Source: a virus (taxonomy: Duplodnaviria; Caudoviricetes). Taken from it: a DNA stretch of 64,000 nt. The translations under genes were made by a program, and so were the position numbers. Location: positions 1-64,000 of IMG/VR virus record IMGVR_UViG_3300031867_000037; one strand, written 5' to 3'. The notes below the pieces were generated by a model. It searched no databases and was not told the origin of the DNA. It worked only from the letters and a program-made list of their open reading frames with translations. How positions within the stretch are numbered: the stretch's first letter is position 1; each line of letters opens with the position of its first letter. Positions 6,840 to 32,128 of the stretch are shown one piece after another.

Positions 6840-7259
6840 ATGGATAGTAAGAAGCGTTTATTTTCGATAAAGGCAAATCCAGTTGAAGAATTGAGGAGTA
6901 GCGTATATACAAATAAAATAACTATACCTCAATATTTACCATCGCCAGTGTGTCCTAAATTGTATGAATTAGTTGACACTACGGTCTATACTAGATTGAT
7001 TAGGGATATTAATCAATCGGATGTGCCAGTTGATGTAAAAGAATTTTTGAAAGTGTGTGCAACTAGACATATTGTATTTAATTATTCGAAAATAGCCGAC
7101 TATTATGCACACTCTGATAAGGAGATTCAAAAGTTGATGGAAGAATCTGCGTTGGTTATAATTGATGTTGATGATGCTATTGCGAATGGATATGTTAAGT
7201 TGAGCAAGAATATTGAAACTATAATGAAAAAATCAGGAGTTGTTGCAAGTGAGGAATGA
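6840..7259 (+). CDS. conserved helical phage protein paired with glycosyltransferase
   Basis: RHIVFNYSKIADYYAH...MEESALVIID motif. Confidence 0.7.
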   Translation: MDSKKRLFSIKANPVEELRSSVYTNKITIPQYLPSPVCPKLYELVDTTVYTRLIRDINQSDVPVDVKEFLKVCATRHIVFNYSKIADYYAHSDKEIQKLMEESALVIIDVDDAIANGYVKLSKNIETIMKKSGVVASEE

Positions 7260-8100
7260 TTTTGCAATTTTCATTTTAACACACGGAAGACCGAATAAAG
7301 TAGTTACATTGGACACTTTAGTAAAGAGTGGTAATACAAATAAAGTTTATCTGGTCGTGGACAACGAAGACAGTTTATTAGATAGTTATTATGCAAATTT
7401 TGGTAAATCTAATGTCATTGTATTCGATAAAAAGAAAAAAAGTACAGAATTTGATACAATGGATTTATCAGACGATAGGCGTGCGATAGTTTATGCTAGG
7501 AATGCGTGTTTCGACATAGCTGAAAAATTAGGCATTCGATACTTTTTAGAGTTGGATGATGATTATACTGTGTTTCGAAGTCGTGTTTGGGATGGAAAAA
7601 AATTGGCAACTTGGTATTTGCGAGACTTTGATGCAGTTGTGGATGAAATGCTAGAATTTTTAGATACGTCTGGTGCTATAACTGTTGCGTTTTCTCAAAC
7701 TGGAGATTTTATAGGCGGAGTTGGTTCAAAGGTTTATAAAGAACGATTGACCCGTAAAGCTATGAATAGTTTTTTTTGCGACACAACAAAGCGGTTTGAT
7801 TTTATAGGCAGAATAAACGAAGATGTAAATACCTATGTGTTACTTGGAAGTAGAGGAAAATTGTTGTTTACGATAGCCGATATGAGTTTAAATCAACTTA
7901 CAACTCAACATTGGTCAGGCGGAATGAGTGAATTATACTTAGATAGTGGTACGTATGTAAAGTCGTTTTACAGTGTTATAGCTAATCCTTCATCAATTAA
8001 AATTTATGAAATGGGTGACACTCATAAACGAATCCATCATAACATAAATTGGGAACATGCGGTGCCAAAAATTGTAAGCAGTCGATTTAGAAAGGAGTAA
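7240..8100 (+). CDS. TAGT/GREB1-like GT-A fold glycosyltransferase
   Basis: IFILTHGRP, ARNACFDIA, ELDDDY (DxD), FIGRINEDV motifs. Confidence 0.8.
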   Translation: MLQVRNDFAIFILTHGRPNKVVTLDTLVKSGNTNKVYLVVDNEDSLLDSYYANFGKSNVIVFDKKKKSTEFDTMDLSDDRRAIVYARNACFDIAEKLGIRYFLELDDDYTVFRSRVWDGKKLATWYLRDFDAVVDEMLEFLDTSGAITVAFSQTGDFIGGVGSKVYKERLTRKAMNSFFCDTTKRFDFIGRINEDVNTYVLLGSRGKLLFTIADMSLNQLTTQHWSGGMSELYLDSGTYVKSFYSVIANPSSIKIYEMGDTHKRIHHNINWEHAVPKIVSSRFRKE

Positions 8101-15857: not shown

Positions 15858-16110
15858 AGTTGAACTTGGACACATTGAAACATCTGGACCGAAATTCGTT
15901 ATTGCGGCAGAACTTGCAACTATGTTTAATTCTATGAATAAGCAGGGCATGTTTACTAAGGAAGAGGTGCATAAACTCGTGGATGACGGATTTATGACTG
16001 ACGAGGAACTTGACGCAAGAGTAGAGGCGACTTGTAAGGAATCCGGTCAGAGTGTAGAAGAAGGTATGGCAGAGGCCGCTCTTCTGGCAATGCTTGGTAG
16101 TCTGCTGTAA
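15850..16110 (+). CDS. hypothetical protein
   Basis: RBS AAGGAGG; coupled. Confidence 0.65.
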   Translation: MIKVELGHIETSGPKFVIAAELATMFNSMNKQGMFTKEEVHKLVDDGFMTDEELDARVEATCKESGQSVEEGMAEAALLAMLGSLL

Positions 16111-16130
16111 TGTAACTTTAGCAGAATAAC

Positions 16131-16225
16131 GATTCGGTGGCGGAATAGGTAGACGCTTACCAGGTAAGATGCTTTGGATGCCTGATAGCGAGCATCATGT
16201 AAGGTGTAAATCCTTACCCGAATCG
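16131..16225 (+). ncRNA. tRNA-like RNA with 3-nt anticodon-position loop and long extra arm
   Basis: Acceptor GATTCGG/CCGAATC; Leu/Ser-type D arm; T arm GTAAGG-TGTAAAT-CCTTAC; TTAC-CAG-GTAA mini hairpin. Confidence 0.65.
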
Positions 16226-16234
16226 TTATGTTAA

Positions 16235-16318
16235 GCTGGTATGGCGGAATTGGCAGACGCAACGGACTTAAAATCCGTTGATAGTAATATCGTGAGGGTT
16301 CGATTCCCTCTACCAGCA
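16235..16318 (+). tRNA. tRNA-Leu(TAA)
   Basis: Full cloverleaf; anticodon stem ACGGA/TCCGT, loop CTTAAAA; long variable arm; no encoded CCA. Confidence 0.92.
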
Positions 16319-16341
16319 TCGGACATCTTATTATTAAGGTG

Positions 16342-16462
16342 GTCCTCCTGAACGATACCCCACTACGGCGAAAGGCTGTGGGCTACAATTAGTAGCTGTC
16401 CGTCGGTGAATGCATCGAGATTCGGGCAAAGGAACTTCAAATGTTCCGGTGGGGTTTAGGAC
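16342..16462 (+). ncRNA. multi-stem structured RNA containing a T-loop hairpin
   Basis: ACCCCAC/GTGGGGT closing helix with four internal hairpins incl. GGAAC-TTCAAAT-GTTCC. Confidence 0.6.
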
Positions 16463-16500
16463 AAATAGTTGTCTATTAATATTATGTAAAGGAGAAACAT

Positions 16501-16953
16501 ATGAAAGCTGGCGACATTGTGAAAGTAACAAGTTGGGGAAAATCTTACAGCACAAACTATTTTTGGTTCGATAAGTTCAAGGGTGAACTTGACTATCGTT
16601 GGATGATTTGTTATGCGTATGATGACCAAAGAAATTATACAAAGTATTGGTCTGAGACCCATCCAGATAATCCTAAGGATACGAAAAGATATGTTGTGCT
16701 CTTTGTTGGCGATGGTAAGGCACTTATTACCGAGCGAGTTGGATATGAACTTAATAAACATGCAGTAAGTAATTCCGTATATCTTGTTGATGTAGACGGG
16801 CTAGAGGTCATTTGTAGTAAAAATTCCGCCGAGGACACTTCTGAGGAAAATGCTGATGCTGAATCAGATAATAAGGACAAATCAAGTAAAGATGAAGTAG
16901 AGGATTTAGAGAAGCTGGCTGTAGAAGCATTTATTAATTGGCTATTTAGTTAA
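16501..16953 (+). CDS. hypothetical protein with acidic tail, inside RNA array
   Basis: RBS AAAGGAGA; 150 aa ORF. Confidence 0.7.
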   Translation: MKAGDIVKVTSWGKSYSTNYFWFDKFKGELDYRWMICYAYDDQRNYTKYWSETHPDNPKDTKRYVVLFVGDGKALITERVGYELNKHAVSNSVYLVDVDGLEVICSKNSAEDTSEENADAESDNKDKSSKDEVEDLEKLAVEAFINWLFS

Positions 16954-16959
16954 ATACTT

Positions 16960-17197
16960 TAAGAACTGGTTCGTTAGTGAGCGATTAAAGTGCGGTCGAA
17001 GGCCAAGACTGCCGCCAGTTGTAGAAATGAAATACTAGCAGGGTAGTGAACTGTTCACAGGGAAAATGCGTGAAGCTGTGACCGTTATTGGAGCAGAGAT
17101 AATCACAAGGAGTAAGGACAAATGGAACCGAACTTTGGATGGACTACCCATTTGGGAGTGTAAGTGTAGACAAAGGGTACAACAGTGATGTGGTTGT
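16960..17197 (+). ncRNA. putative structured ncRNA
   Basis: No ORF; nested helices AACTGG/CCAGTT, GCGGTC/GACTGC, GGGTAGT/ACTACCC, TCACAG/CTGTGA. Confidence 0.5.
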
Positions 17198-17268
17198 TAG
17201 AGTATGTCAACGGCAACAGTCTAGTCTCCATCAACTAGAAAACGAAGGTTCGAATCCTTCTGCTCCTG
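17198..17268 (+). tRNA. degenerate tRNA-Trp-like with 8-nt anticodon loop
   Basis: T arm GAAGG-TTCGAAT-CCTTC; anticodon stem CTAGT/ACTAG, loop CTCCATCA; short D arm; 5-bp acceptor. Confidence 0.55.
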
Positions 17269-17304
17269 CTCGGTGGTAAGGCTTGCAACGCTGAATCATC
17301 GGAA

Positions 17305-17366
17305 GACCGCAGAACAAAAGTGACAACAAAAACTGTGGGAGTGCGGTTGACTGTCACTAGACCGCA
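17305..17366 (+). ncRNA. two-hairpin element with complementary loops
   Basis: CCGCAG/CTGTGG and TGCGGT/ACCGCA stems; loops AGTGACA and TGTCACT are complementary. Confidence 0.5.
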
Positions 17367-17369
17367 TTT

Positions 17370-17486
17370 CAGAACGTAGCTCAAACGGTAGAGCCGCCCC
17401 TCATGCTGGTTCGAATCCAGCCTGCGAAGCAGTAATTCAAATGGCAGAATCGGGGCTGGTTGCAGGTTCGAATCCTGCCGTTCCGA
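17370..17486 (+). ncRNA. double-elbow tRNA-like RNA (two D arms, two T arms, no anticodon)
   Basis: All helices can be paired by hand; see findings. Confidence 0.75.
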
Positions 17487-17487
17487 T

Positions 17488-17714
17488 GCCGTGGTATCTT
17501 CCCACGTTAAACCAGAGAGGTTTGCAGTAATCCTGAGAGCCCGCCTATTGGCATTAAGCCAAGTAAGGCCTAACCCTTCATGAAGGGGATGTACGGCGGG
17601 AACAAACGAATCCTCCTCCTGTTGGTAACCAGAAAACCAGTCGAGTGAGAAACCTGAAAACGCAGCGGTCTGGCAATGCGGAAGTAGGACGCACCTTTGG
17701 GGATACGGTGCAAC
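17488..17714 (+). ncRNA. putative ~230-nt structured ncRNA
   Basis: Helices CGTGG/CCACG, AAACC/GGTTT, CCCGCC/GGCGGG, TTGGC/GCCAA, GCACC/GGTGC; GC-rich and non-coding. Confidence 0.55.
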
Positions 17715-17716
17715 TC

Positions 17717-17805
17717 GGGAATGTAGCTCAACGGCAGAGCACAGGCAAATTTCGTCCCCGTCCTTCACAGCCTGTTTTTTGTGGGTTCGAATCCCACCAT
17801 TCCGA
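17717..17805 (+). ncRNA. tRNA-like RNA with 23-nt anticodon loop
   Basis: D arm GCTC/GAGC; stem CAGGC/GCCTG; T arm GTGGG-TTCGAAT-CCCAC. Confidence 0.7.
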
Positions 17806-17883
17806 TTGAATCTGTTATTTGCAGATTCAGTTGTTTTAATTCTTTTCTGGCGAGTACCGGTATTGCCGTGCCGGTACTCATTA

Positions 17884-17957
17884 CGGAACGTAGTTTAAAT
17901 GGTAAAACAGTTACATTGCAGATGGGTTGATTGCAGGTTCAAATCCTGTCGTTCCGA
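17884..17957 (+). tRNA. degenerate tRNA (Cys-GCA-like loop, poorly paired anticodon stem)
   Basis: Acceptor CGGAACG/CGTTCCG; T arm with TTCAAAT loop; loop TTGCAGA. Confidence 0.55.
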
Positions 17958-17961
17958 TTAC

Positions 17962-18034
17962 TGCCCCATCGCCAAGAGGTTAAGGCATAGCACTTTGACT
18001 GCTATATTCCCTGGTTCGAATCCAGGTGGGGTAG
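17962..18034 (+). tRNA. tRNA-Gln(TTG)
   Basis: Cloverleaf; stem TAGCA/TGCTA, loop CTTTGAC; T arm CCTGG-TTCGAAT-CCAGG. Confidence 0.92.
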
Positions 18035-18060
18035 CTAAATAAAAATGAGGAGGACAATGA

Positions 18061-18231
18061 ATGGATATTAAATTTTGTAAAGATTCTGGCTGTCATTATT
18101 TTGACGGGTTTGGTTGTGACCGAAGTCCTGTCGTAAAAGAAAATGAAGAAAGGTGTTCCTGTGATGAACGAGAAGCCATACAAGTCAGCGTGGGAGATAT
18201 TCACAGACCCGAAAGAGTTAAAGATAGCTGA
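18061..18231 (+). CDS. possible small Cys-rich protein (56 aa)
   Basis: GAGGAGG RBS 7 nt upstream; overlaps next ORF in another frame. Confidence 0.4.
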   Translation: MDIKFCKDSGCHYFDGFGCDRSPVVKENEERCSCDEREAIQVSVGDIHRPERVKDS

Positions 18232-18562
18232 GAAGATACAGCAAAGAAGATACCAGATGCTTATTCATTCCTGTATTTATTATAGGCTGAATGATAATTA
18301 TATATCTGATACTCAGTGGAATGAATGGGCGCACGAACTGGAACAACTACAAAGTCAGTACCCAACAATATCTGAAAAGGTGACGTTGTACGAATATTTT
18401 AAAGATTGGGATGGAAGTTCCGGAGCATTTCTACCGCTTGATTTACCGTGGGTAGTAAAGAAAGCACAAGATTTATTGGCATATCGAGAAAATAGCAAGT
18501 CTATAGTATTACCACAAAAAGTAGTTCCGAAGAAAAAAAGTTCGAAAAAAAGATTATTCTAG
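18143..18562 (+). CDS. stand-alone NAD-dependent DNA ligase N-terminal (Ia)-like domain
   Basis: IHSCIYYRLNDNYISDTQWNEWAHELEQLQSQYP resembles LigA YY..D.P.ISD.EYD.L..EL..LE..YP; no adenylation KxDG. Confidence 0.65.
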   Translation: MKKGVPVMNEKPYKSAWEIFTDPKELKIAEKIQQRRYQMLIHSCIYYRLNDNYISDTQWNEWAHELEQLQSQYPTISEKVTLYEYFKDWDGSSGAFLPLDLPWVVKKAQDLLAYRENSKSIVLPQKVVPKKKSSKKRLF

Positions 18563-23605: not shown

Positions 23606-24552
23606 TGGATGTTGGTACATTAAAATCCCATATAAAATTAAAAACAATTCCTTCGTTTTTAATTTTCGGTGGAGAAGAATGGAAAGTACAGGAGATATAT
23701 ATTCAGCAGATAGTAAAAGCAACAGGATTTGAAATAAAAAGAATTGATTCAATAACCGATGTTTATGCAAATTTAAAGAATCGTTCCTTTATTCAAAAGC
23801 CGGTCATTTACATAGTTCGTGATGATAAGGAACTTATGCAGAATGAGAAGATACAGGCACAGATAGAAAAGGGCCTGTTGAATGATAACATTCTGATACT
23901 TTTACTCACAAATATTGACAAGCGCACAAAGTTTTATAAGCAGTTTAAAGAGCGTATTTGCTTGTTTGAGCGACTTTCTGATAGTTTATTGAAGAAGTAT
24001 GCGCTAAAAGAATTAAAGCTGTCTGAGAGCGATTTAAAGCGTCTGGTCAATATATGTGAACACGACTATGGCAGAATTTTGCTAGAGATAGACAAGATAA
24101 AATGTTATATGCTGGCATCTGAAATAGCTGGATATGATTGTACCTGTAGTGAAGCGTTACATGATTTGTTAGAGGACGGTACAATATATAATCCGCCGTA
24201 TGATGCAATATTTGATTTAGTGTCAGCGATACTGGATAGAAAAGTAAATAAGGCATTTGATTTACTTCAACAGTCTTATGCAATGGGAGAAGCCACATTA
24301 GTAATATTGTCGGTTTTGTATAAAGGAGCAAAAGCAGTATTACAGATTCAGACTTATGAAGGAGACAATTTAAGTAAAGCTACAGGACTGAGTGGTTGGG
24401 AAATAAAGAACGCAAAGCCGCATGTGAATAAATATGGGGACGAGGAATTAATCTACATACTTCAACTCATTCAGAAGATAGAGCGAGGAATTAAGACAGG
24501 ACGTATGGAAGATGAATTCGCCATGCAGTATCTATTAACGCATATAATGTGA
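23605..24552 (+). CDS. holA: clamp-loader delta-like subunit
   Basis: FLIFGGEE, IDKRTKFYK, LEIDK, IFDLVSAI patterns typical of HolA. Confidence 0.75.
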   Translation: MDVGTLKSHIKLKTIPSFLIFGGEEWKVQEIYIQQIVKATGFEIKRIDSITDVYANLKNRSFIQKPVIYIVRDDKELMQNEKIQAQIEKGLLNDNILILLLTNIDKRTKFYKQFKERICLFERLSDSLLKKYALKELKLSESDLKRLVNICEHDYGRILLEIDKIKCYMLASEIAGYDCTCSEALHDLLEDGTIYNPPYDAIFDLVSAILDRKVNKAFDLLQQSYAMGEATLVILSVLYKGAKAVLQIQTYEGDNLSKATGLSGWEIKNAKPHVNKYGDEELIYILQLIQKIERGIKTGRMEDEFAMQYLLTHIM

Positions 24553-24553
24553 G

Positions 24554-24781
24554 GTGATAATTATGATGGTAAAAGGATATGTAAGAATTTCTTTAAGTTT
24601 GAATGTTTATGACCTTGAAACGGATGCAGTTTGTACTGATAAATACGGAAATGTAACAATATCAGACCCAGACCAGTTCTTTATGGACTGGTGCGATAAT
24701 TGGAAAAATGGAATTGGTGAACTGCTTGGCGCATCAGATGAAGATGTTGACCTTACTTATGAGGAAGAAGAGGAAGAATGA
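24554..24781 (+). CDS. hypothetical acidic protein
   Basis: Coupled ORF. Confidence 0.55.
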   Translation: MIIMMVKGYVRISLSLNVYDLETDAVCTDKYGNVTISDPDQFFMDWCDNWKNGIGELLGASDEDVDLTYEEEEEE

Positions 24782-24782
24782 A

Positions 24783-24992
24783 ATGGTAGAACGTGGTATT
24801 TATAAACACTTTAAAGGAAATGCTTACGGTGTTTTGCACGTAGCAACTCACACGGAGACTGGTGAACGGCTTGTCATTTATAGAAAGTTGTCAGATGTTG
24901 GAGCGTATTATGAAGGCGAAATTTGGGCACGACCTGAATCAATGTTTGAAGAACTTGTAGACGGTGTCCCAAGATTTGAAAGGATTATGTAG
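24783..24992 (+). CDS. DUF1653-like protein
   Basis: GIYKHFKGN.Y.V..VA.HTET.E.LVIY...WARP.SMF. Confidence 0.85.
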   Translation: MVERGIYKHFKGNAYGVLHVATHTETGERLVIYRKLSDVGAYYEGEIWARPESMFEELVDGVPRFERIM

Positions 24993-24994
24993 AA

Positions 24995-25165
24995 GTGGAA
25001 ATTAAAGAGCATGAATATTGTTTACGGTGTGGGAGAAAATTAAAAAATCCTATAGCTAGACAAAAGGGTTATGGTGTAGTGTGTGAAAAGAAATTACGAG
25101 TTGTGGCAAATACTAAACCGTTAATTTACACTAAGCCATCCGAGACATTGCAAGCAGAGAAATGA
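24995..25165 (+). CDS. small DUF6011-like zinc protein (56 aa, GTG start)
   Basis: CLRCGRKLKNPIARQKGYGVVC. Confidence 0.6.
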   Translation: MEIKEHEYCLRCGRKLKNPIARQKGYGVVCEKKLRVVANTKPLIYTKPSETLQAEK

Positions 25166-25190
25166 TTGACAGGTAAACTACAAAGTTCGC

Positions 25191-25224
25191 AAAAAAAATA
25201 AGCTACCCTTTCGGGTAGCTTATT
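25191..25224. terminator. terminator between convergent blocks
   Basis: AATAAGCTACCC-TTTC-GGGTAGCTTATT hairpin; A8 upstream gives a U-tract for the leftward transcript. Confidence 0.85.
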
Positions 25225-25240
25225 CGAATATTCGAATGGC

Positions 25241-25603
25241 TCACATACTAGCCTTCAATTTGCGAATTTCTTCACTACTGATTGGTTCCCATTCTGCTAT
25301 GTACATATAACCTGTTCCTTTTGTTTCTGTGTAGAATTCAAACTCCATAATGAAGTTGTAGCTATCGGAGCGATAGAACTGCCAGTTGTACGGTAATGTT
25401 CTGCAAATCTCTTTTGTTCCGTCTTCGTTGTTCCATTCATCATCACAATGAGTATCCGGATTGCCCCATGTTCTGAAATCTGATACCCAATCGTAAATAT
25501 CAATGCCATGTGATTCTGCTAAATGTCGGCAGTAAGTGAAAAATGCCCTAGGCTTTATGTTGTTATAGCTTGATTCTACTTCCTTGTGTATAAGTTTTCC
25601 CAT
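25241..25603 (-). CDS. early hypothetical protein
   Basis: 120 aa; last ORF of leftward block. Confidence 0.7.
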   Translation of the reverse strand: MGKLIHKEVESSYNNIKPRAFFTYCRHLAESHGIDIYDWVSDFRTWGNPDTHCDDEWNNEDGTKEICRTLPYNWQFYRSDSYNFIMEFEFYTETKGTGYMYIAEWEPISSEEIRKLKASM

Positions 25604-25604
25604 A

Positions 25605-25820
25605 TTAAAAAGCCTCCTTTGCTGTTTTAACTTCCTTGAATTTGCTGTCTAGTACACAATAACCGTCTTTGTAATCATCAGCCTTACCGCCAAACAGTTT
25701 AATAGCCGTATCTATCTCCCTTTGTACTCGCATGATGGCTCCGAGATATGTGTACCCATTAGTGGGCTGGTCACGAAATGGAATTCCTCTATAATCTGCC
25801 ACAAAATATCTTCCTTTCAT
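25605..25820 (-). CDS. early hypothetical protein
   Basis: AAGGAGG RBS. Confidence 0.7.
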   Translation of the reverse strand: MKGRYFVADYRGIPFRDQPTNGYTYLGAIMRVQREIDTAIKLFGGKADDYKDGYCVLDSKFKEVKTAKEAF

Positions 25821-25902
25821 TTAATTATCCTCCTTGAATTTTAATTTTCATTCATACGCCTGATAGTAAATTATCGGGCGCATTGTATGAGAACTAAAAT
25901 CC

Positions 25903-26187
25903 TTACTTGATAGGTTCTACCTGTTCGTCAGTGAACCAGAACGCCTTAACAAGAATGAAGTCACGGTATTTCTTCTTCGGTTCCTCGCCCTCTTCCTCGT
26001 CTGCGACTTCCTGTTTCTTTTTGCTCTTTTTCCAGATAGCAAACTCGGCTACGTGTTCTGCTCCTTTCTTGATTTTGTAACCTCTCATTTTCCAGCCAAC
26101 GAACGTGTTGATTACATTGGTTTCCTTGATGATGCCATCCTTAATAAGTAGAGCGGTGTTAGTTGCAATGATTTCAGCGTTTGTCAT
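25903..26187 (-). CDS. ArdC N-terminal-like ssDNA-binding protein
   Basis: TFVGWKMRGYKIKKG...IW...FWFTDEQVE. Confidence 0.6.
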   Translation of the reverse strand: MTNAEIIATNTALLIKDGIIKETNVINTFVGWKMRGYKIKKGAEHVAEFAIWKKSKKKQEVADEEEGEEPKKKYRDFILVKAFWFTDEQVEPIK

Positions 26188-26231
26188 GGTAAGTTCCTCC
26201 TTTGATTAAACATGTACTATACTGTATCTTA

Positions 26232-26261
26232 ATTATAACATCTGGCAAATAGTTCTGTCAA
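26232..26261 (-). promoter_or_regulatory. leftward promoter TTGACA-18-TATAAT with extended TG
   Basis: Consensus boxes upstream of 26187. Confidence 0.7.
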
Positions 26262-26270
26262 GATAGCGAT

Positions 26271-26576
26271 TTACAGATTCTTATTTAGGTTTTCGCATAG
26301 TCTTTCCAATCGTTTTCTGTCAAGGCGTTTGGCGTAAATAATCTCCTCAAGTTCGTGCCAAACATTAAGTAACATTTGATAATAACCGTCTGCGATTTTT
26401 TCATAATCATCGCCTTCTGGCACATCAAAAGTTAGGTCGTAAATAAGTTCATGGAAAGCGTTTGACATATCATATCCAAGATTGTCTTTTATTATATCCT
26501 CCATTTCTTCCTTAGGGTTGAACATGATAAATGACTGTTCAGGTATCTCTTTTTTAGGTATTGTAATTGTATGCAT
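26271..26576 (-). CDS. early hypothetical protein
   Basis: AAGGAGG RBS before ATG at 26576. Confidence 0.7.
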   Translation of the reverse strand: MHTITIPKKEIPEQSFIMFNPKEEMEDIIKDNLGYDMSNAFHELIYDLTFDVPEGDDYEKIADGYYQMLLNVWHELEEIIYAKRLDRKRLERLCENLNKNL

Positions 26577-26657
26577 AATTCCTCCTTGTTTGCAATTAAT
26601 GGTTTCAGTGTGATAGACAATCCGAAGATTGTCCACCACGGCTCAAATCATTAATTA

Positions 26658-26891
26658 TTATCTAACCCACATCTTCCACGGAAATGTTCTTCCAACTCTA
26701 TCCGTGTATGATTCATAGATTAAATAGGCAGTCAGATAAACTTTGTCAATGCCGAGTTCTCTCTTGATGTAATCAAAGCACTGGTCGAATGTGTTGCCTT
26801 CGAACATTACTTCACTATTACCAAATCGTTTTGTGTCCGCAATCACAACTATGTAGTTGTCAGCCTTAACTTCGATTCTGATATTCTCCAT
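26658..26891 (-). CDS. early hypothetical protein
   Basis: AAAGGAGG RBS before MENIRIEV. Confidence 0.65.
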   Translation of the reverse strand: MENIRIEVKADNYIVVIADTKRFGNSEVMFEGNTFDQCFDYIKRELGIDKVYLTAYLIYESYTDRVGRTFPWKMWVR

Positions 26892-26910
26892 CTTCACGTT
26901 ACGTCCTCCT

Positions 26911-27279
26911 TTATACATCCATCTGTATGCTATGATACACAACCCAGTAACCGTTGACTTTGAATATGCTGTACCACGATGTGAATAACTGACCAGTGCA
27001 GTCATATCCTTTATCAATATATCCGATATAGTGGTATTCCTTGAAGAACTCCTTGAATTCTTCGAGTGTTTCACCGCTGTCTTTGAAGCGGAGCTTTTCT
27101 ACACAGCCTTCATTGTCAAGTCGTACCACTGTTTTGTATTCCTGTTCAATCAACCACAGTTTGTATTCGTGGCGAATTTCACGTTTCCGTTTATTCAGAA
27201 CTTCTTTGAAATACGGATGCGGTAATTCTTTGTTAAGCTGTTCCAGTCTCAATAAATCTCTCCAGTCTGCTCTACTCAT
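26911..27279 (-). CDS. early hypothetical protein
   Basis: AAGGAGG RBS; motif YDCTGQLFT. Confidence 0.7.
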   Translation of the reverse strand: MSRADWRDLLRLEQLNKELPHPYFKEVLNKRKREIRHEYKLWLIEQEYKTVVRLDNEGCVEKLRFKDSGETLEEFKEFFKEYHYIGYIDKGYDCTGQLFTSWYSIFKVNGYWVVYHSIQMDV

Positions 27280-27410
27280 TTTAAATCCTCCTTATTGATT
27301 ACTCCGTAGTAGTCTTGATACTCGTCGTACTCGACCAGAACCTTAGTCTCTATCTCAGCCACGATTGTTCCCCAACCGTAGTTCTCGTCATAGTATCTTT
27401 TACCAAGCAT
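27276..27410 (-). CDS. small acidic/Tyr-rich protein (44 aa, MLGKRYYDENYGWG...)
   Basis: Hand-translated; overlaps both neighbours. Confidence 0.55.
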   Translation of the reverse strand: MLGKRYYDENYGWGTIVAEIETKVLVEYDEYQDYYGVINKEDLK

Positions 27411-27702
27411 ACTGTTTTCTCCTTGTCTCAGTTTCTATCCAGCACAGTTCGTCCTCTAACCAGTCGGTTATCTGCTGTTCTACTGTCCTTTCAAACACAT
27501 CGTCCTCGTCATTCCAGAATCTGTATGTACCGAGAAGTTTGTCATTGAACGGTCCCGACTGTTTGGAGTATCTGAACAAGGAGAATTCAAAAAGTATCTC
27601 GTGCTCATTCCAGCGCCAATCATCTGTATAATAATTGGTACCTTCCAGAATCTTGTCGATTTCTTTTCTAGTGAAATCCATCGCCTCATATACGTCCATC
27701 AT
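27400..27702 (-). CDS. early acidic hypothetical protein
   Basis: GGAGG RBS; D/E/W-rich. Confidence 0.7.
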   Translation of the reverse strand: MMDVYEAMDFTRKEIDKILEGTNYYTDDWRWNEHEILFEFSLFRYSKQSGPFNDKLLGTYRFWNDEDDVFERTVEQQITDWLEDELCWIETETRRKQYAW

Positions 27703-27830
27703 TTGTTTGCCTCCATATCGTGATAATACTCGTCCTCAAGTTCATCATAGGCATCTGGGTCAACTTCGTACATATCTGTCGGGTCGCCCTCTATTCCGTA
27801 CTTTTCGAGTAACCATTCTCTGAATGTCAT
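27699..27830 (-). CDS. small very acidic protein (43 aa, MTFREWLLEKYG...)
   Basis: AAAGGAGG RBS; hand-translated. Confidence 0.6.
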   Translation of the reverse strand: MTFREWLLEKYGIEGDPTDMYEVDPDAYDELEDEYYHDMEANK

Positions 27831-27844
27831 TGTTTTATCCTCCT

Positions 27845-28090
27845 TTACATAAGTTCTTTGATTTCTCGCCTTACCATCCTTGTAAATTCACAGATAGATT
27901 CATAGTCCAGTTCCGAAAGATTGCAGTAGTCATATAAACAATCCACATATCCTTCGAGCAAATCTGCCAATCGTAATAGTGATTCGCAGTTGGACTTGAG
28001 GAAGTCATATTCACTACCAACATATATCATATTGGCGATGATGTTGAATTTTGATTTGTAGCCTTCGTAGCCTTTAAATTTTGTGTACAT
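27845..28090 (-). CDS. early hypothetical protein
   Basis: AAGGAGG RBS before MYTKFKGY. Confidence 0.7.
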   Translation of the reverse strand: MYTKFKGYEGYKSKFNIIANMIYVGSEYDFLKSNCESLLRLADLLEGYVDCLYDYCNLSELDYESICEFTRMVRREIKELM

Positions 28091-28178
28091 CGTGTCCTCC
28101 TTAACTATGTAGATGATGGTTAATTGTTTCACTGATGCAGGCGAAACATGTTCGCCCGCACTATCAAACAATCAATAA

Positions 28179-28403
28179 TCACATCAGGTTGTTGTAGTTC
28201 TCCTTTAAGAACTTTACTGCTTGAATCCAGCTATCAAACGGTTGAACTGTTTCCCAAAAGCCTTCGCCGTAAATAATATTCGCATCTGTTACATACCACG
28301 GTTCATGCTTTAATATGGAATATTTTCCATTTACTGCACGATGCGGTACAAAGAAATTACCGAGTTCAAATTCTAAATCACCAAACACGTTGCGGTATCC
28401 CAT
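28179..28403 (-). CDS. early hypothetical protein
   Basis: AAGGAGA RBS. Confidence 0.65.
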   Translation of the reverse strand: MGYRNVFGDLEFELGNFFVPHRAVNGKYSILKHEPWYVTDANIIYGEGFWETVQPFDSWIQAVKFLKENYNNLM

Positions 28404-28404
28404 G

Positions 28405-28722
28405 TTAAATTCTCCTTATCTCTCCAAACTGTAACCACCAACTGTAATCAAGTCCTTTTCTGTCGAACCAGTCTTCTTGTTCTGCCAGTGATGTATATAT
28501 CCAACTTTGTGATACATCTTCCCAAATGTCGTCATACATTACTTCTATCCTAACGGTTACAAATTCGTTGTACCAAAATTTTGCTTCGTAGTGGCGGTAA
28601 ATGCATTTTGCTTCTGCCCTGGTGAGCCAATCTTTAATCACGGTATCACGAGGCTGAGCGCCATATCCAAATGCTCCATAATCATCATACGTTTCAACTA
28701 CTCTCCATCTACTCATTAGCAA
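28405..28722 (-). CDS. early hypothetical protein
   Basis: Coupled ORF; W/Y-rich. Confidence 0.65.
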   Translation of the reverse strand: MLMSRWRVVETYDDYGAFGYGAQPRDTVIKDWLTRAEAKCIYRHYEAKFWYNEFVTVRIEVMYDDIWEDVSQSWIYTSLAEQEDWFDRKGLDYSWWLQFGEIRRI

Positions 28723-28961
28723 AGTCCTCCATCCTTATATGCTCTGGACATCAGCTTGAGGAATAAATCCTGCAGGTCGCCGTAGTTGTCATTGTCGATG
28801 TAGTAGTCCACGTTCGGGTCGTCCGGCTCAAAGTCACCGTCAGCAACTCCACACATCAGCCACAGGTCGCAGTAGTGTTCATTGTTGATATGGCGTACAA
28901 TGAATTCCATCGCTTTTACCATAAGTGTTCGTTCCTGGTCTTTTGTAAGTCTTTTTGCCAT
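28716..28961 (-). CDS. early acidic hypothetical protein
   Basis: AGAGGA RBS. Confidence 0.65.
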   Translation of the reverse strand: MAKRLTKDQERTLMVKAMEFIVRHINNEHYCDLWLMCGVADGDFEPDDPNVDYYIDNDNYGDLQDLFLKLMSRAYKDGGLC

Positions 28962-29058
28962 TTGTTTGTCCTCTTTGATTTGACTATGTAGATTACCTTT
29001 GTAATCTCACCGAAGTGGGCGAAACAGGTTCGCTCACGACGGTCAAGCTACAATGGAA

Positions 29059-29421
29059 TTAGTAGATTTCAATTACCAGTTTGTCGAATGCCTGAATCAG
29101 AGCGGTTGTAATGTCTTTCAGGTATTTGCAGTTCTTTTTGTCAAGTCGGATTTTGGAAAGTCTGCGGTATTCCTTATCGAGTAAGTTCTCCGTGTATCCT
29201 CCTTTCTTATTAAGTCCCAAACAATTTTTCATGTGGTTTTTGTCAATCCAGAAATCAGACATTTGCCACATATCGGTGTCGTTCTCCTTGTATTCATAGA
29301 GGAATATTAGACAAGCGTTGCCGTTATACAAGCTCACAGTGTATTCACGGTTATCTCCGTTGTAGGTATCAACAAAAGTTGCTTCTCCAACCTTCTTGTT
29401 CCAGTCCCAGTGAAGTGCCAT
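29059..29421 (-). CDS. early hypothetical protein
   Basis: AAAGGAGG RBS. Confidence 0.7.
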   Translation of the reverse strand: MALHWDWNKKVGEATFVDTYNGDNREYTVSLYNGNACLIFLYEYKENDTDMWQMSDFWIDKNHMKNCLGLNKKGGYTENLLDKEYRRLSKIRLDKKNCKYLKDITTALIQAFDKLVIEIY

Positions 29422-29435
29422 TTACTTATCCTCCT

Positions 29436-29681
29436 TTAAAAGAATGTTTCCATTTCATCCAAGTAAAATCTTCTGCCGCATTTTCTGATATAATCTCTTC
29501 CAGATACGGTGTAATAGATTTTATTACGGCTTATTTTTATTCTGCCGTCACCGTAGTTAAAACATGTTACCAGATAATCCTCAATGCCGTAAAGTACATC
29601 GAGAATTTCTAAGCCTCCCCAGTTGCATAGGCAAACATAGGCGATTGGTGGCTTGTCTTTGTACTGCTCCTTGAGTGTCAT
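29436..29681 (-). CDS. early hypothetical protein
   Basis: AAAGGAGG RBS within 42-bp repeated leader. Confidence 0.7.
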   Translation of the reverse strand: MTLKEQYKDKPPIAYVCLCNWGGLEILDVLYGIEDYLVTCFNYGDGRIKISRNKIYYTVSGRDYIRKCGRRFYLDEMETFF

Positions 29682-29686
29682 ATTTT

Positions 29687-29728
29687 GTCCTCCTTTAACT
29701 TTGTAGATGATGTGTGGTCAATCCCACA
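29687..29728. repeat. 42-bp exact repeat, copy 1 (copy 2 at 31165-31206)
   Basis: GTCCTCCTTTAACTTTGTAGATGATGTGTGGTCAATCCCACA at both sites. Confidence 0.9.
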
Positions 29729-29775
29729 AGACTACAGACAATCCGTAGATTGTCTGCAGGTTTGCGGTATTGAAC

Positions 29776-30048
29776 TTATCCGATTACGAAATCGGTATCA
29801 TATGTCTTGGAAATGTGATACAAATGTTCTTTGCCGGATACATCCTTGTAGCGGAAGGCGTATGTGAACTTCCAGCCGCTTGCTGTACAAATTCTGCCGT
29901 CGTAGCCGTTAAGGTCCGACTGTTTTACAAGGCAGTTTCTATACGCTTCTTCCTTCTTGTCTGACCACTTGCCATATACCTGGCGCAGGTCGTGAATGTC
30001 TTTTGCTCGATTGTAGTTGTCCAATAACTGTTCCTGTTTCTTAGTCAT
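29776..30048 (-). CDS. early hypothetical protein
   Basis: GGAGGA RBS. Confidence 0.7.
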   Translation of the reverse strand: MTKKQEQLLDNYNRAKDIHDLRQVYGKWSDKKEEAYRNCLVKQSDLNGYDGRICTASGWKFTYAFRYKDVSGKEHLYHISKTYDTDFVIG

Positions 30049-30050
30049 GT

Positions 30051-30338
30051 TTATTCCTCCTCTTCCTCAATATCAAGGTTAATGACTACTTCTTCCTCAA
30101 TCTCACCGACAATACTATCGGTAACGGCGTCAACCGCATCTGTACCTCCGTCAAGAACATCCTCAAATACTGACGTTCTGGCGATAATGAATATTGCCGC
30201 TGTCTGAATGTGTCTGTCGGTCGGCTTATTTCTCTGTACAAAATTCAGCAGGGAAGAATATGCCTTGTTGCTACCAGCATCAAAGTAATTATGCCGTATA
30301 CAAAAGTTTCTCATGCGGTCCATGTTCCAGTATCTCAT
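30051..30338 (-). CDS. early hypothetical protein
   Basis: AAGGAGG RBS before MRYWNMDRM. Confidence 0.7.
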   Translation of the reverse strand: MRYWNMDRMRNFCIRHNYFDAGSNKAYSSLLNFVQRNKPTDRHIQTAAIFIIARTSVFEDVLDGGTDAVDAVTDSIVGEIEEEVVINLDIEEEEE

Positions 30339-30427
30339 TTTGTCCTCCTTATTTTTATTTGCCACATCTTCGTACTTTTCACGTTAGGCGCTCCATTGAT
30401 ACAACGGCGCCCACGTTACTACTTCCG

Positions 30428-30751
30428 TTAGTTTGTGGACTTTGTAGATATACAAACTCCCAACCTGTTTTCCATTTCGTGGACTAGCTGAATGGCTTCA
30501 CTGCCTTCACAGTTTCTCCACTCGTCAAGGAGTCCTGCATAGTACATTAACTCCTCGACCTCTTCCAGCTTGCGCCCCCAATGCGGAGCAGTTAGAATTT
30601 GTGCTTCGAGCTGGAATATCCGATATGACTGCCACTCGTCAATATCAGGACGTTCCTCACGCTCGATTTTGTCCTGCTTCCAATTACAGTACTTATCCCA
30701 GAGACAACAATAGTCTCCGAGATACAATAAATCCAGTAGCTTATCGAACAC
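30428..30751 (-). CDS. early hypothetical protein (probable GTG start)
   Basis: ORF coupled to 30741..30983; start uncertain. Confidence 0.55.
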   Translation of the reverse strand: MFDKLLDLLYLGDYCCLWDKYCNWKQDKIEREERPDIDEWQSYRIFQLEAQILTAPHWGRKLEEVEELMYYAGLLDEWRNCEGSEAIQLVHEMENRLGVCISTKSTN

Positions 30752-30983
30752 CTTGAACCTCTTCTTCCCAGAACTTGTTACGCAATTCTGTGGCATAGTT
30801 CCAAGTTGCGGCATGCACCTCAGTGGAGCAAATTTTCATAGCTACTGCCGTAACGCCAAATAACTGATGGCTAAATTCAAAGTAACAATCGGTAACATTT
30901 GCATCAAGGTTACGATAACGAGTTGCCTGCTCCTTAGCCTCTGAATATAGGTAATCCATAGCTTCCTTAAATTTATTCAGCAT
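30741..30983 (-). CDS. early hypothetical protein
   Basis: AAGGAGG RBS. Confidence 0.7.
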   Translation of the reverse strand: MLNKFKEAMDYLYSEAKEQATRYRNLDANVTDCYFEFSHQLFGVTAVAMKICSTEVHAATWNYATELRNKFWEEEVQGVR

Positions 30984-30993
30984 GGTGTCCTCC

Positions 30994-31158
30994 TTACTTT
31001 ATAACTACCACTGTGATTTGCCTGTCAAATATGAACTCGGCAATTTCCTTTAGTTCCTTCACAGCTACATCCAACGGTTTGTCCGTGGGTAACGGGCAAG
31101 TTCTAATCTGCACCAACTGTGCCGGTTTACCAAACTCGCCGTACAATTTTGCCTTCAT
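30994..31158 (-). CDS. small hypothetical protein (54 aa, MKAKLYGEFG...)
   Basis: RBS inside 42-bp repeat copy 2; hand-translated. Confidence 0.65.
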   Translation of the reverse strand: MKAKLYGEFGKPAQLVQIRTCPLPTDKPLDVAVKELKEIAEFIFDRQITVVVIK

Positions 31159-31164
31159 AGCAAC

Positions 31165-31206
31165 GTCCTCCTTTAACTTTGTAGATGATGTGTGGTCAAT
31201 CCCACA
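31165..31206. repeat. 42-bp exact repeat, copy 2
   Basis: Identical to 29687-29728. Confidence 0.9.
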
Positions 31207-31256
31207 GTGCTACGGACAATCGTTTGTGGATTGTCCGCAACGGCTGTGCCATTGAC

Positions 31257-31670
31257 TTATTCCAGCATATCCTTATAGTAGTTTTCCCACAGGTCCTGTA
31301 CTCGTAATTCATAGTTGGACCCGTGTGAAGGATATCCTTCGTCAATACACTCCTGTGCTATTCTCTCGCAGGCTTCTTTAAACTCTTCCAGTAACTGGTC
31401 CTGTTTTGTCCACCCGTCTGGGAACCATTTAATTGTATTTACATCTAACCATCCGTGCTCACATCTGGTAGCGGTCATGTGCGTCCACAATATCTGCGGT
31501 ACAACAAAGTCCGCAATTTCAATAATTCGGTAGATGTGAAGTCCGGCGGGAATATGAACTGTAATCCATCCATCATCCTCATTGAATACCTTCACATTAA
31601 AATCCGGTGTAAATACTGTGCCTTCTTTTTTAACGAAACCCTCATATGCATGTCTTGCCATCAGAATCAT
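31257..31670 (-). CDS. early hypothetical protein
   Basis: C-terminal ECIDEGYPSHGSNYELR motif. Confidence 0.7.
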   Translation of the reverse strand: MILMARHAYEGFVKKEGTVFTPDFNVKVFNEDDGWITVHIPAGLHIYRIIEIADFVVPQILWTHMTATRCEHGWLDVNTIKWFPDGWTKQDQLLEEFKEACERIAQECIDEGYPSHGSNYELRVQDLWENYYKDMLE

Positions 31671-31855
31671 TTCCTCACCGCCTTTACATTAAACATCCTC
31701 CACGTACGGCATGCCGGATAATGAATCATGTCTGCCGCAATACTTACGACCATGTGTGGAACATTGGCATACACTTCTCCAGTACACTGGGAAATGTACT
31801 CAAACTTGCCTCCTTCAAACTTCCCAAGGAAGTTGGTGATACGATACAGTTTCAT
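31667..31855 (-). CDS. early hypothetical protein
   Basis: AAAGGAGG RBS. Confidence 0.65.
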   Translation of the reverse strand: MKLYRITNFLGKFEGGKFEYISQCTGEVYANVPHMVVSIAADMIHYPACRTWRMFNVKAVRK

Positions 31856-31878
31856 ATGTTTTCCTCCTTTCCAATTAA

Positions 31879-31963
31879 TTGTCAGACAATTCAGACTTGT
31901 CAGACAATTCAGACTTGTCAGACAATTCAGACTTGTCAGACAATTCAGACTTGTCAGACAATT
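31879..31963. repeat. 18-bp tandem repeat x4.7 (TTGTCAGACAATTCAGAC)
   Basis: Exact copies; each has palindrome TTGTC-A-GACAA. Confidence 0.95.
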
Positions 31964-32046
31964 TAATCATGGCTCCACAGCTGGTCGAGAAAATGGTCCT
32001 CGACGGTCAGCAATAGATACCCCAGGGTAAATATCACTATAAGCAT
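31963..32046 (-). CDS. 27-aa hydrophobic peptide (MLIVIFTLGYLLLTVEDHFLDQLWSHD)
   Basis: Strong AAAGGAGGA RBS upstream. Confidence 0.5.
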   Translation of the reverse strand: MLIVIFTLGYLLLTVEDHFLDQLWSHD

Positions 32047-32128
32047 ACGGTCCTCCTTTGTGCTTGGTCAATAGATACACTACAACGGGCGAAACATGTT
32101 CGCCCGCTGTCTGTGAAGCTATTGGCGA

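Follow-up and report, generated by a model that had tools for sequence, protein, structure and literature searches.

The engineered tRNA scaffold places a cargo RNA in a tRNA frame for stable expression in bacteria, and in phage T4 the RNAs RNAC and RNAD are encoded inside the tRNA cluster and are matured with the tRNAs. Both of these phage T4 RNAs are small and stable, and their function is still unknown (PMC9697503). In plant mitochondria, non-decoding tRNA-shaped structures at RNA ends, the t-elements, are the cleavage signals for RNase P and RNase Z (PMC1920247). YrlA RNA, which has a tRNA-like module, is a substrate of tRNA enzymes and occurs in phages (PMC4201824). GOLLD and ROOL are large structured RNAs of phages and prophages, of unknown function and often found beside tRNA islands (PMC12286853). 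Phages contain many tRNA-like structures of unknown role, on which the literature offers general statements only (PMC10690425). Here we describe a 1.9-kb cluster of tRNAs and tRNA-shaped RNAs (positions 16131-18034) in a phage of the ruminant gut. The cluster lies between a small open reading frame (ORF) and a stand-alone Nlig-Ia (NAD-binding) gene (18143-18562), in a stretch of 64,000 nucleotides that we call the window (positions 1 to 64,000 of the IMG/VR record IMGVR_UViG_3300031867_000037). All its features are given on the plus strand. A search of the literature for its RNA families found no description of them.

The noncoding RNAs of this cluster are genuine, conserved among phages and for the most part undescribed, and they stand together with two tRNAs and one small protein gene. 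With slightly better than even confidence, we read it as a tRNA-punctuated noncoding-RNA operon of a rumen phage, the transcript of which would be cut by host RNase P and RNase Z. It comprises two decoding tRNAs (Leu-UAA and Gln-UUG) and five tRNA-shaped RNAs derived from tRNA-Leu, tRNA-Pro and possibly tRNA-Trp, here called A, X, the double-elbow RNA (DE), T3 and T4. These five units cannot decode, since the anticodon loop is lost. The gathering threshold of the Rfam tRNA family (RF00005, 29 bits) was exceeded by tRNA-Leu (63 bits), tRNA-Gln (58.1 bits), T4 (49.9 bits), T3 (45.6 bits) and DE (42.5 bits); X scored 19.6 bits (17198-17268), below the threshold, and A gave no match. A 5-bp anticodon stem with a 7-nt loop, U33 and a purine at position 37 was found in tRNA-Leu and tRNA-Gln only. 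None of the units encodes CCA, and all have a contiguous 12-bp stack of acceptor and T stems. An initial annotation, made from the letters of the window, had held that only Leu(TAA) and Gln(TTG) are canonical, which ARAGORN and Rfam bore out. It had also listed five units with abnormal anticodon arms: their positions and their abnormal arms stand as given, except that the unit with the 8-nt loop is larger and really has 115 nt (17154-17268). Its remark that the elbows and the D and T arms had been spared is right in that the five units keep acceptor, D and T arms, and has to be amended for the noncanonical T loop of A and the weak D arm (3 bp) of X. Among the structured segments that it saw interleaved with these units, the elements W and Y5 are conserved structured RNAs, whereas 16501-16953 is a gene of 150 amino acids.

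W is a structured RNA of ~225 nt (17488-17716) with 14 homologues, in which conserved 5′ and 3′ domains enclose a variable central domain and the first hairpin pairs with the last in a loop-loop pseudoknot of 7 bp. Its model of 39 pairs, including the pseudoknot, showed 98.5% of the cells paired and seven pairs changed on both sides, a value reached by none of 500 shuffles. In 13 of 14 contigs, the 5′ edge of W lies 0-2 nt past the 3′ end of a tRNA or tRNA-shaped element, and this upstream neighbour is of the Pro type or of the A type in 12 of those 13. On the other side, the 5′ end of another tRNA or tRNA-shaped element follows W after 2-4 nt in 12 of the 14 contigs.

Two further modules lie upstream of X. 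Y5 (16965-17019), a three-helix RNA of ~55 nt with blastn matches in the loci L007, L016, L022 and L025, has a consensus of 17 pairs, four of them with compensatory changes among six sequences, and is found directly upstream of tRNA-shaped units in relatives. Z (17020-17153) is a conserved module with 84% identity to L025:6346-6487. Elsewhere it lies after X (L025/G003) or after a tRNA-like unit (L434), and a tRNA-shaped unit follows it in the three copies that were read (window, L025/G003 and L434). The orders Y5-X, Y5-DE-X, Y5-DE-W-T3 and A-W occur among relatives, and since the order differs in this way, the modules are independent and do not form one large RNA.

Unit A (16131-16224) is a non-decoding derivative of tRNA-Leu, as judged by its sequence and by comparison within its family. 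It has a 7-bp acceptor stem (GATTCGG/CCGAATC), a Leu-type D arm (GCGG-AATAGGTAGA-CGC), a long variable arm and the T arm TAAGG-TGTAAAT-CCTTA, where the loop TGTAAAT is noncanonical; the anticodon arm is replaced by a mini hairpin with a 5-bp stem and a 3-nt loop (CTTAC-CAG-GTAAG). A pattern search for T arm and D arm found this family in at least 119 IMG/VR contigs and in 31 GTDB genomes, mostly of Bacillota (Lachnospiraceae, Leuconostoc, Fructobacillus, Levilactobacillus, Oceanobacillus and Erysipelotrichaceae). Among the matches listed, to which all the following counts for A refer, 111 of 156 had a fully complementary 5′ acceptor strand followed by a Leu-type D arm. The 96 distinct members, 88-221 nt long, carry 46 different acceptor strands, with every Watson-Crick pair type present at acceptor pairs 1-5, showing covariation, while the D arm is near-invariant across the family. 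Position 73 is A in 60 of the 96 members. At the position of the variable arm, members have a hypervariable insert of ~35-170 nt. The short hairpin CUUA-N3-6-UAAG stands in place of the anticodon arm in many of them, so that the 3-nt loop of the window copy is, by sequence comparison, a family trait. Most copies are solitary (102 of 148 at loci without any tRNA gene), and no conserved neighbour protein was found among the 148 copies, the largest cluster having six members. Leuconostoc phage LN34 (28 kb) has an unannotated copy close to its genome end, as do its relatives; blastn against GenBank phages returned only tRNA-level matches and this element in Leuconostoc phages.

Unit X (17154-17268), the tRNA-shaped RNA of 115 nt, is composed of a 7-bp acceptor stem, the weak D arm, two extra hairpins, an anticodon-like hairpin and a T arm, and has G as its discriminator base. 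In the window the loop of the anticodon-like hairpin has 8 nt (CTCCATCA / CUCCAUCA), with a pyrimidine at position 37. Across the family this loop has 7-8 nt with an invariant CCAUCA and C or U at position 33, and CCAUCA is complementary to the invariant GUGAUG of an inserted hairpin. The unit is 87-96% identical in nine phage contigs, in which the adjacent Nlig-Ia protein is only 52-71% identical. Its alignment (A3) had 97.3% of the cells paired and six pairs changed on both sides; none of 500 shuffles matched the real alignment, and slid controls gave 0-2. In L005, X takes exactly the slot where L004, L006 and L012 have tRNA-Trp(CCA), and its ancestry is possibly a tRNA-Trp.

DE (17370-17486) joins two tRNA bodies through one stem, which Rfam aligned to the tRNA family with a 50-nt insert. 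The outer body is of the tRNA-Pro type, with acceptor, D arm, T arm and A73. Its anticodon stem (GCCCC/GGGGC) has no loop and opens into a complete, circularly permuted second tRNA body, the 50-nt insert, made of T arm, closed acceptor hairpin, TA and D arm. Read from the 5′ end, the order is outer acceptor strand, TA, D arm, shared stem, 4-nt linker, inner T arm, closed acceptor hairpin, TA, inner D arm, shared stem, linker, outer T arm, acceptor strand and A73. Homologues were found at L022:1207-1329(-) and L276:461-582 (sources, a 161-kb phage and a metagenome contig). Over the three sequences, 105 of 106 cells in the helices are paired, and compensatory changes affect 9 of the 30 pairs that can be compared; the inner acceptor stem varies in length but is kept as a hairpin. 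Scans of viral and metagenome sequences with a Pro-type double-elbow pattern found only three distinct sequences beyond the window, and a looser scan for two T loops mostly returned other things. DE is preceded by a leader (17269-17369), of which 17298-17369 is conserved in related contigs (these cover 17298-17486 and 17298-17370). In three unrelated phage contigs of IMG/VR (L241, L164 and L242), permuted tRNA bodies are enclosed by a stem, some of them without the outer tRNA half. Because of these latter copies, the permuted module is not confined to the Pro-type double elbow.

The outer frame of this lineage, CGGAACG/CGTTCCG with A73, is that of phage tRNA-Pro(UGG). Forty distinct IMG/VR sequences share the Pro-type acceptor and T arm, 32 of them with a regular D arm. 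Fourteen were called canonical tRNA-Pro(TGG/GGG), and in most of the remaining ones (61-123 nt) the anticodon arm is either deleted or else shortened or replaced. T3 (17717-17805) has this Pro-type frame with a 23-nt loop on the anticodon stem; in L276 and L434 the unit that occupies this place after W carries a loop of 17 nt, and in L016 its anticodon arm is missing altogether. T4 (17884-17957) likewise has a Pro-type frame and is paralogous to DE's outer body. The Cys(GCA) call that ARAGORN makes for it is probably fortuitous: two of the five pairs of the anticodon stem are mismatched and the stem does not pair. Unit T4 groups with the 71-72-nt relatives in L077 and L047, and the unpaired middle region is common to all. 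Another tRNA-Pro-type frame, of 87 nt and with the middle palindrome CGTGTACACG, recurs near-unchanged in 38 IMG/VR loci (L042, L046, L066, L151 and others), where ARAGORN reports nothing, Arg(ACG) or Val(AAC).

Other large tRNA frames were seen in the relatives. At L276:901-1190, directly after W-T3, a type-II tRNA frame (GGGGCGA/TCGCCCT, with a Leu-type D arm and a T arm) encloses an insert of ~230 nt, possibly an intron or a very large cargo. There are tRNA matches of 126-135 nt at L012:4448-4573, L004:4865-4992, L003:4703-4828 and L006:4821-4955; in at least the L012 and L004 copies, the anticodon arm is intact and of the Thr(TGT) type, and the variable arm of ~55 nt contains a T-arm-like hairpin. 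A conserved RNA of ~140 nt, absent from the window, follows tRNA-Ile/Met at L008:4330-4470 and on the reverse strand of L037 (1990-1855), with a T-arm-like 3′ end (GGGGGATGTTCGAATCGTCC).

RNase P and RNase Z read a contiguous acceptor/T stack without an encoded CCA. The tRNA-shaped units retain what RNase P, RNase Z and the CCA-adding enzyme use, namely the D/T elbow and a stack in which an acceptor stem of 7 bp continues into a T stem of 5 bp. In a punctuated operon, these shapes would most likely serve as cleavage signals and as stable frames. A common precursor would be cut at the 5′ and 3′ edges of each tRNA-shaped module, releasing with defined ends the tRNAs, A, X, DE, T3 and T4, as well as W, Y5-Z and perhaps the mRNA of the 150-amino-acid gene. 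The flanking of W, taken together with the elements kept for RNase P and RNase Z, the missing CCA and the loss of the decoding element, supports this reading. The release by RNase P/Z-type processing that the initial annotation had proposed fits the anatomy, in that W abuts tRNA-shaped elements on both sides, and has against it a terminator-like hairpin inside the array. Assembled contigs of public runs, which give no RNA ends, showed W and Y5-Z in RNA libraries: a 168-nt contig of a size-fractionated RNA library from bovine gut lies wholly within W (17541-17708, one difference), contigs of a second size-fractionated library lie on 17601-17711 of W, and a 151-nt metatranscriptome contig, also of bovine gut origin, is identical to 16977-17127 of Y5-Z.

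Several observations weigh against this reading. The contigs of the RNA libraries may stem from contaminating DNA, and the ends of the RNAs are not readable from them; they cover none of A, X, DE, T3 and T4 convincingly, which we take as uninformative. The hairpin mentioned above (17803-17833) splits the array, and no convincing promoter for the array was found. The minimum free energy of W is no better than that of shuffled sequence (z = -0.03), so that its fold rests on covariation. Punctuation also leaves unexplained the ~40 nt of near-invariant extra sequence in X, the complete second tRNA body of DE, and the solitary copies and invariant D arm of A. Because of these unexplained features, it is probable that the tRNA-shaped RNAs, once released, have a further role in trans, directed at a host factor that recognises tRNAs. 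Binding to such a factor is suggested by the near-invariant D and T arms of A and by the second body that is conserved in DE.

This leads to an alternative that we consider possible and give roughly a one-in-four weight in our judgement, namely that the tRNA-shaped RNAs are mimics or decoys in trans, occupying a host protein that recognises the acceptor or the elbow of tRNAs. The proposed targets are a synthetase such as LeuRS, a toxin by which the acceptor end or the variable arm is modified or cut, or RNase P itself. Host translation would be protected or redirected during infection, and the loss of the anticodon would make the mimics harmless to decoding. Recognition by LeuRS is independent of the anticodon, and defence nucleases that target tRNAs exist. 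The D arm of A is invariant in sequence far beyond the needs of its fold, and the frequency of A73 in the family points the same way, although the discriminator base and acceptor pairs 1-5 vary freely and the T loop (UGCAAAU) departs from the tRNA consensus. Unit A stands alone in small phages such as Leuconostoc phage LN34, and since no conserved neighbour gene accompanies it there, any partner would have to come from the host. The two complete elbows conserved in DE and the conservation of X beyond that of the neighbouring Nlig-Ia also favour mimicry. As anticodon nucleases need an anticodon loop, which is not present in these RNAs, decoys for such enzymes are disfavoured, and the link to them in the initial annotation is weak. 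Mimicry is compatible with punctuation and could form its second half.

A wider version joins both ideas, and we hold it still more tentatively, at about one chance in five. Phages of Gram-positive bacteria would have repeatedly turned tRNA genes (Leu, Pro and perhaps Trp) into non-decoding, trans-acting "tRNA-frame" effectors that double as processing punctuation for W-like RNAs. Bivalent (DE) or single mimics may then sequester an enzyme of the host that recognises tRNAs, or an immune effector directed against tRNAs.

It is very unlikely that the units are tRNA pseudogenes decaying after recombination in a tRNA island, with junk spacers between them. Syntenic slots of relatives do hold canonical tRNAs (Trp(CCA) in place of X, and Ile(TAT) or Met(CAT), which are absent from the window), T4 resembles DE minus its inner body, and the order of the modules is shuffled among relatives. 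However, every abnormal unit has relatives in other phages with the same abnormality and with compensatory changes, as the initial annotation had anticipated in arguing that random decay would not hit the anticodon arms each time. W and Y5 covary and X is conserved better than the protein next to it, so that covariation already largely refutes decay for A, X, DE, W and Y5.

We give as little credence to the possibility that the units are decoding tRNAs of odd shape, where T4 would be a tRNA-Cys(GCA), X a Trp-type or quadruplet reader, and T3 and DE precursors from which an intron is spliced. The loop of T4 does have 7 nt (UUGCAGA), including U33 and a purine at 37, matching the ARAGORN call, but besides its mismatched stem T4 has the acceptor and A73 of a tRNA-Pro and relatives without any anticodon. 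The loop of X contains CCA and its discriminator G is that of bacterial tRNA-Trp, yet the invariant CCAUCA, the C or U at 33, the pyrimidine at 37 and the two inserted hairpins are against decoding. T3 or DE minus the insert would still lack an anticodon loop, neither RtcB nor a Ro-type protein is encoded by the phage, and Rfam gave no match to a group I intron or to any family other than tRNA. Finally, it is equally improbable that a single large ornate RNA of the GOLLD/ROOL kind, with built-in tRNA-derived modules, spans 16964-17716. In favour of this, no spacers separate the modules, phage tRNA islands often have GOLLD and ROOL nearby, a GOLLD linker can carry tRNAs (PMC12286853) and W joins its ends by a pseudoknot around a conserved 3′ domain and a variable domain, but no GOLLD, ROOL or large-RNA Rfam match was found at E<=10, the modules occur in differing orders and combinations among relatives, and the RNA-library contigs match single modules.

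The search against known RNA classes covered the window at the Rfam gathering thresholds and 15900-18300 at E<=10 with permissive filters, and returned only tRNA and chance-level matches. GOLLD, ROOL, YrlA, riboswitches and ribozymes were rejected on this basis; the Infernal/Rfam check that the initial annotation had proposed for GOLLD, ROOL, YrlA and ribozymes gave no match at E<=10. GOLLD (RF01998) and ROOL (RF03087) had no match in the window or in 14 related loci. A tmRNA was also rejected, as ARAGORN found none in the window. No TROVE (Ro60/Rsr) or RtcB gene is present in the 74-kb phage record, and a YrlA-type Y RNA was discarded for want of a Ro gene, a Ro-binding helix (the shared stem of DE has 5 bp) and an Rfam match.

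The remaining features of the cluster are as follows. The canonical tRNA-Leu(TAA) lies at 16235-16318 and the canonical tRNA-Gln(TTG) at 17962-18034 (to 18035 in the ARAGORN listing), both called by ARAGORN and Rfam. Between tRNA-Leu and the protein gene, sequence reading indicates an untranslated hairpin stretch (16319-16500), hairpin-rich at 16342-16462, right after tRNA-Leu; in a related contig 16381-16427 is swapped for 3 nt, so that the stretch is partly dispensable in that relative. The gene itself, ORF150 (16501-16953, 150 amino acids), has the Shine-Dalgarno sequence AAAGGAG upstream of its ATG. Compared with a related contig, 17 of its 32 listed differences fall at codon position 3, and indels occur on both sides of the ORF and none inside it. 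This bias and the indel-free frame show that 16501-16953 is a gene and not a structured RNA, and about one quarter of the supposed RNA array is therefore protein-coding. ORF150 belongs to no Pfam family, and a protein search of viral contigs found no relatives. A minus-strand ORF of 177 amino acids (17235-17768) was rejected, since its frame is not kept by the indels among W homologues. The terminator-like hairpin, followed by a T run (17803-17843), was identified by a consensus scan only. Next comes a strong hairpin (17838-17883) with a 3′ end resembling that of Y5 by sequence and blastn; 17869-17910 is an 86% match to the Y5/DE junction of L022.

The source of the window is a 74-kb IMG/VR virus record, estimated as ~92% complete. 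Pfam scans of 30 ORFs identified primase, family-A DNA polymerase, a TET-associated glycosyltransferase (TAGT), sliding clamp, clamp loader, RecA, terminase, an SPP1-type portal and a CHAP/PG-binding lysin; genes for replication, packaging and lysis were thus present among these ORFs, and no tRNA- or RNA-processing enzyme was found. Given this gene set (polymerase, terminase, SPP1-type portal and lysin), the record is that of a tailed phage, probably with a Gram-positive (Bacillota) host. The sequencing runs that contain the cluster stretch are mostly metagenomes of bovine or other ruminant gut. The G+C content is 45% in the cluster vs 34-38% in its flanks. Directly downstream of the array, the Nlig-Ia gene encodes the NAD-binding domain Ia of an NAD-dependent DNA ligase on its own. 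Of 14 related loci retrieved by means of the Nlig-Ia protein, 10 likewise have a tRNA array just upstream of this gene, and a solo Nlig-Ia has been proposed as a phage NAD+ sensor (PMC9503650). Elsewhere in the window, the TAGT gene (7240-8100, E=4e-36) is just downstream of the family-A DNA polymerase gene, which hints at hypermodification of DNA bases. Over ~7.5 kb (24552-32058) there is no ORF of at least 150 amino acids, and the GC skew and the AT skew are both reversed, which suggests that small genes of the minus strand are grouped here.

If the RNAs of the cluster are processed and stable, phage tRNA islands are partly misannotated, here with a spurious tRNA-Cys. Much of what tRNA finders skip or mislabel there would then be conserved noncoding RNAs that are produced by way of the host's tRNA maturation. 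Unit A occurs in well over a hundred phage and prophage genomes, including those of culturable dairy Leuconostoc phages, making its function testable by phage genetics. DE and W have compact folds supported by covariation and are good targets for structure determination.

The closest parallel to the bracketing of W, Y5 and Z by tRNA-shaped modules is that of the t-elements. These are organellar and flank mRNAs, whereas the cluster belongs to a phage, its payload is mostly noncoding RNA and its cleavage is predicted from anatomy; moreover, its tRNA-shaped modules are strongly conserved families with extra domains. The cluster recalls RNAC and RNAD by the location of its RNAs among phage tRNA genes. 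The host of phage T4 is Gram-negative, and we know of no double elbow or W-like pseudoknot described for these two RNAs. Compared with GOLLD and ROOL, the RNAs of the cluster are smaller, modular and shuffled among relatives, and match neither covariance model. The likeness to YrlA concerns DE, the inner body of which follows the permuted YrlA order (T arm, closed acceptor-like hairpin and D arm) in each of the three homologues and is entered through a helix at the position of the anticodon stem. Here, however, there is no TROVE gene, no Rfam match and no Ro-binding helix (the shared stem has only 5 bp), and what lies beyond the helix is a second tRNA body, its acceptor end open. If the effector reading is true, DE would be a natural two-headed tRNA mimic without a described counterpart. 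The engineered tRNA scaffold is artificial, and it is alike in that a tRNA frame is kept while its anticodon or variable region is replaced, as in A, which combines a constant frame with a hypervariable insert of 35-170 nt. The tRNA-frame principle of RNA engineers is apparently used in nature too.

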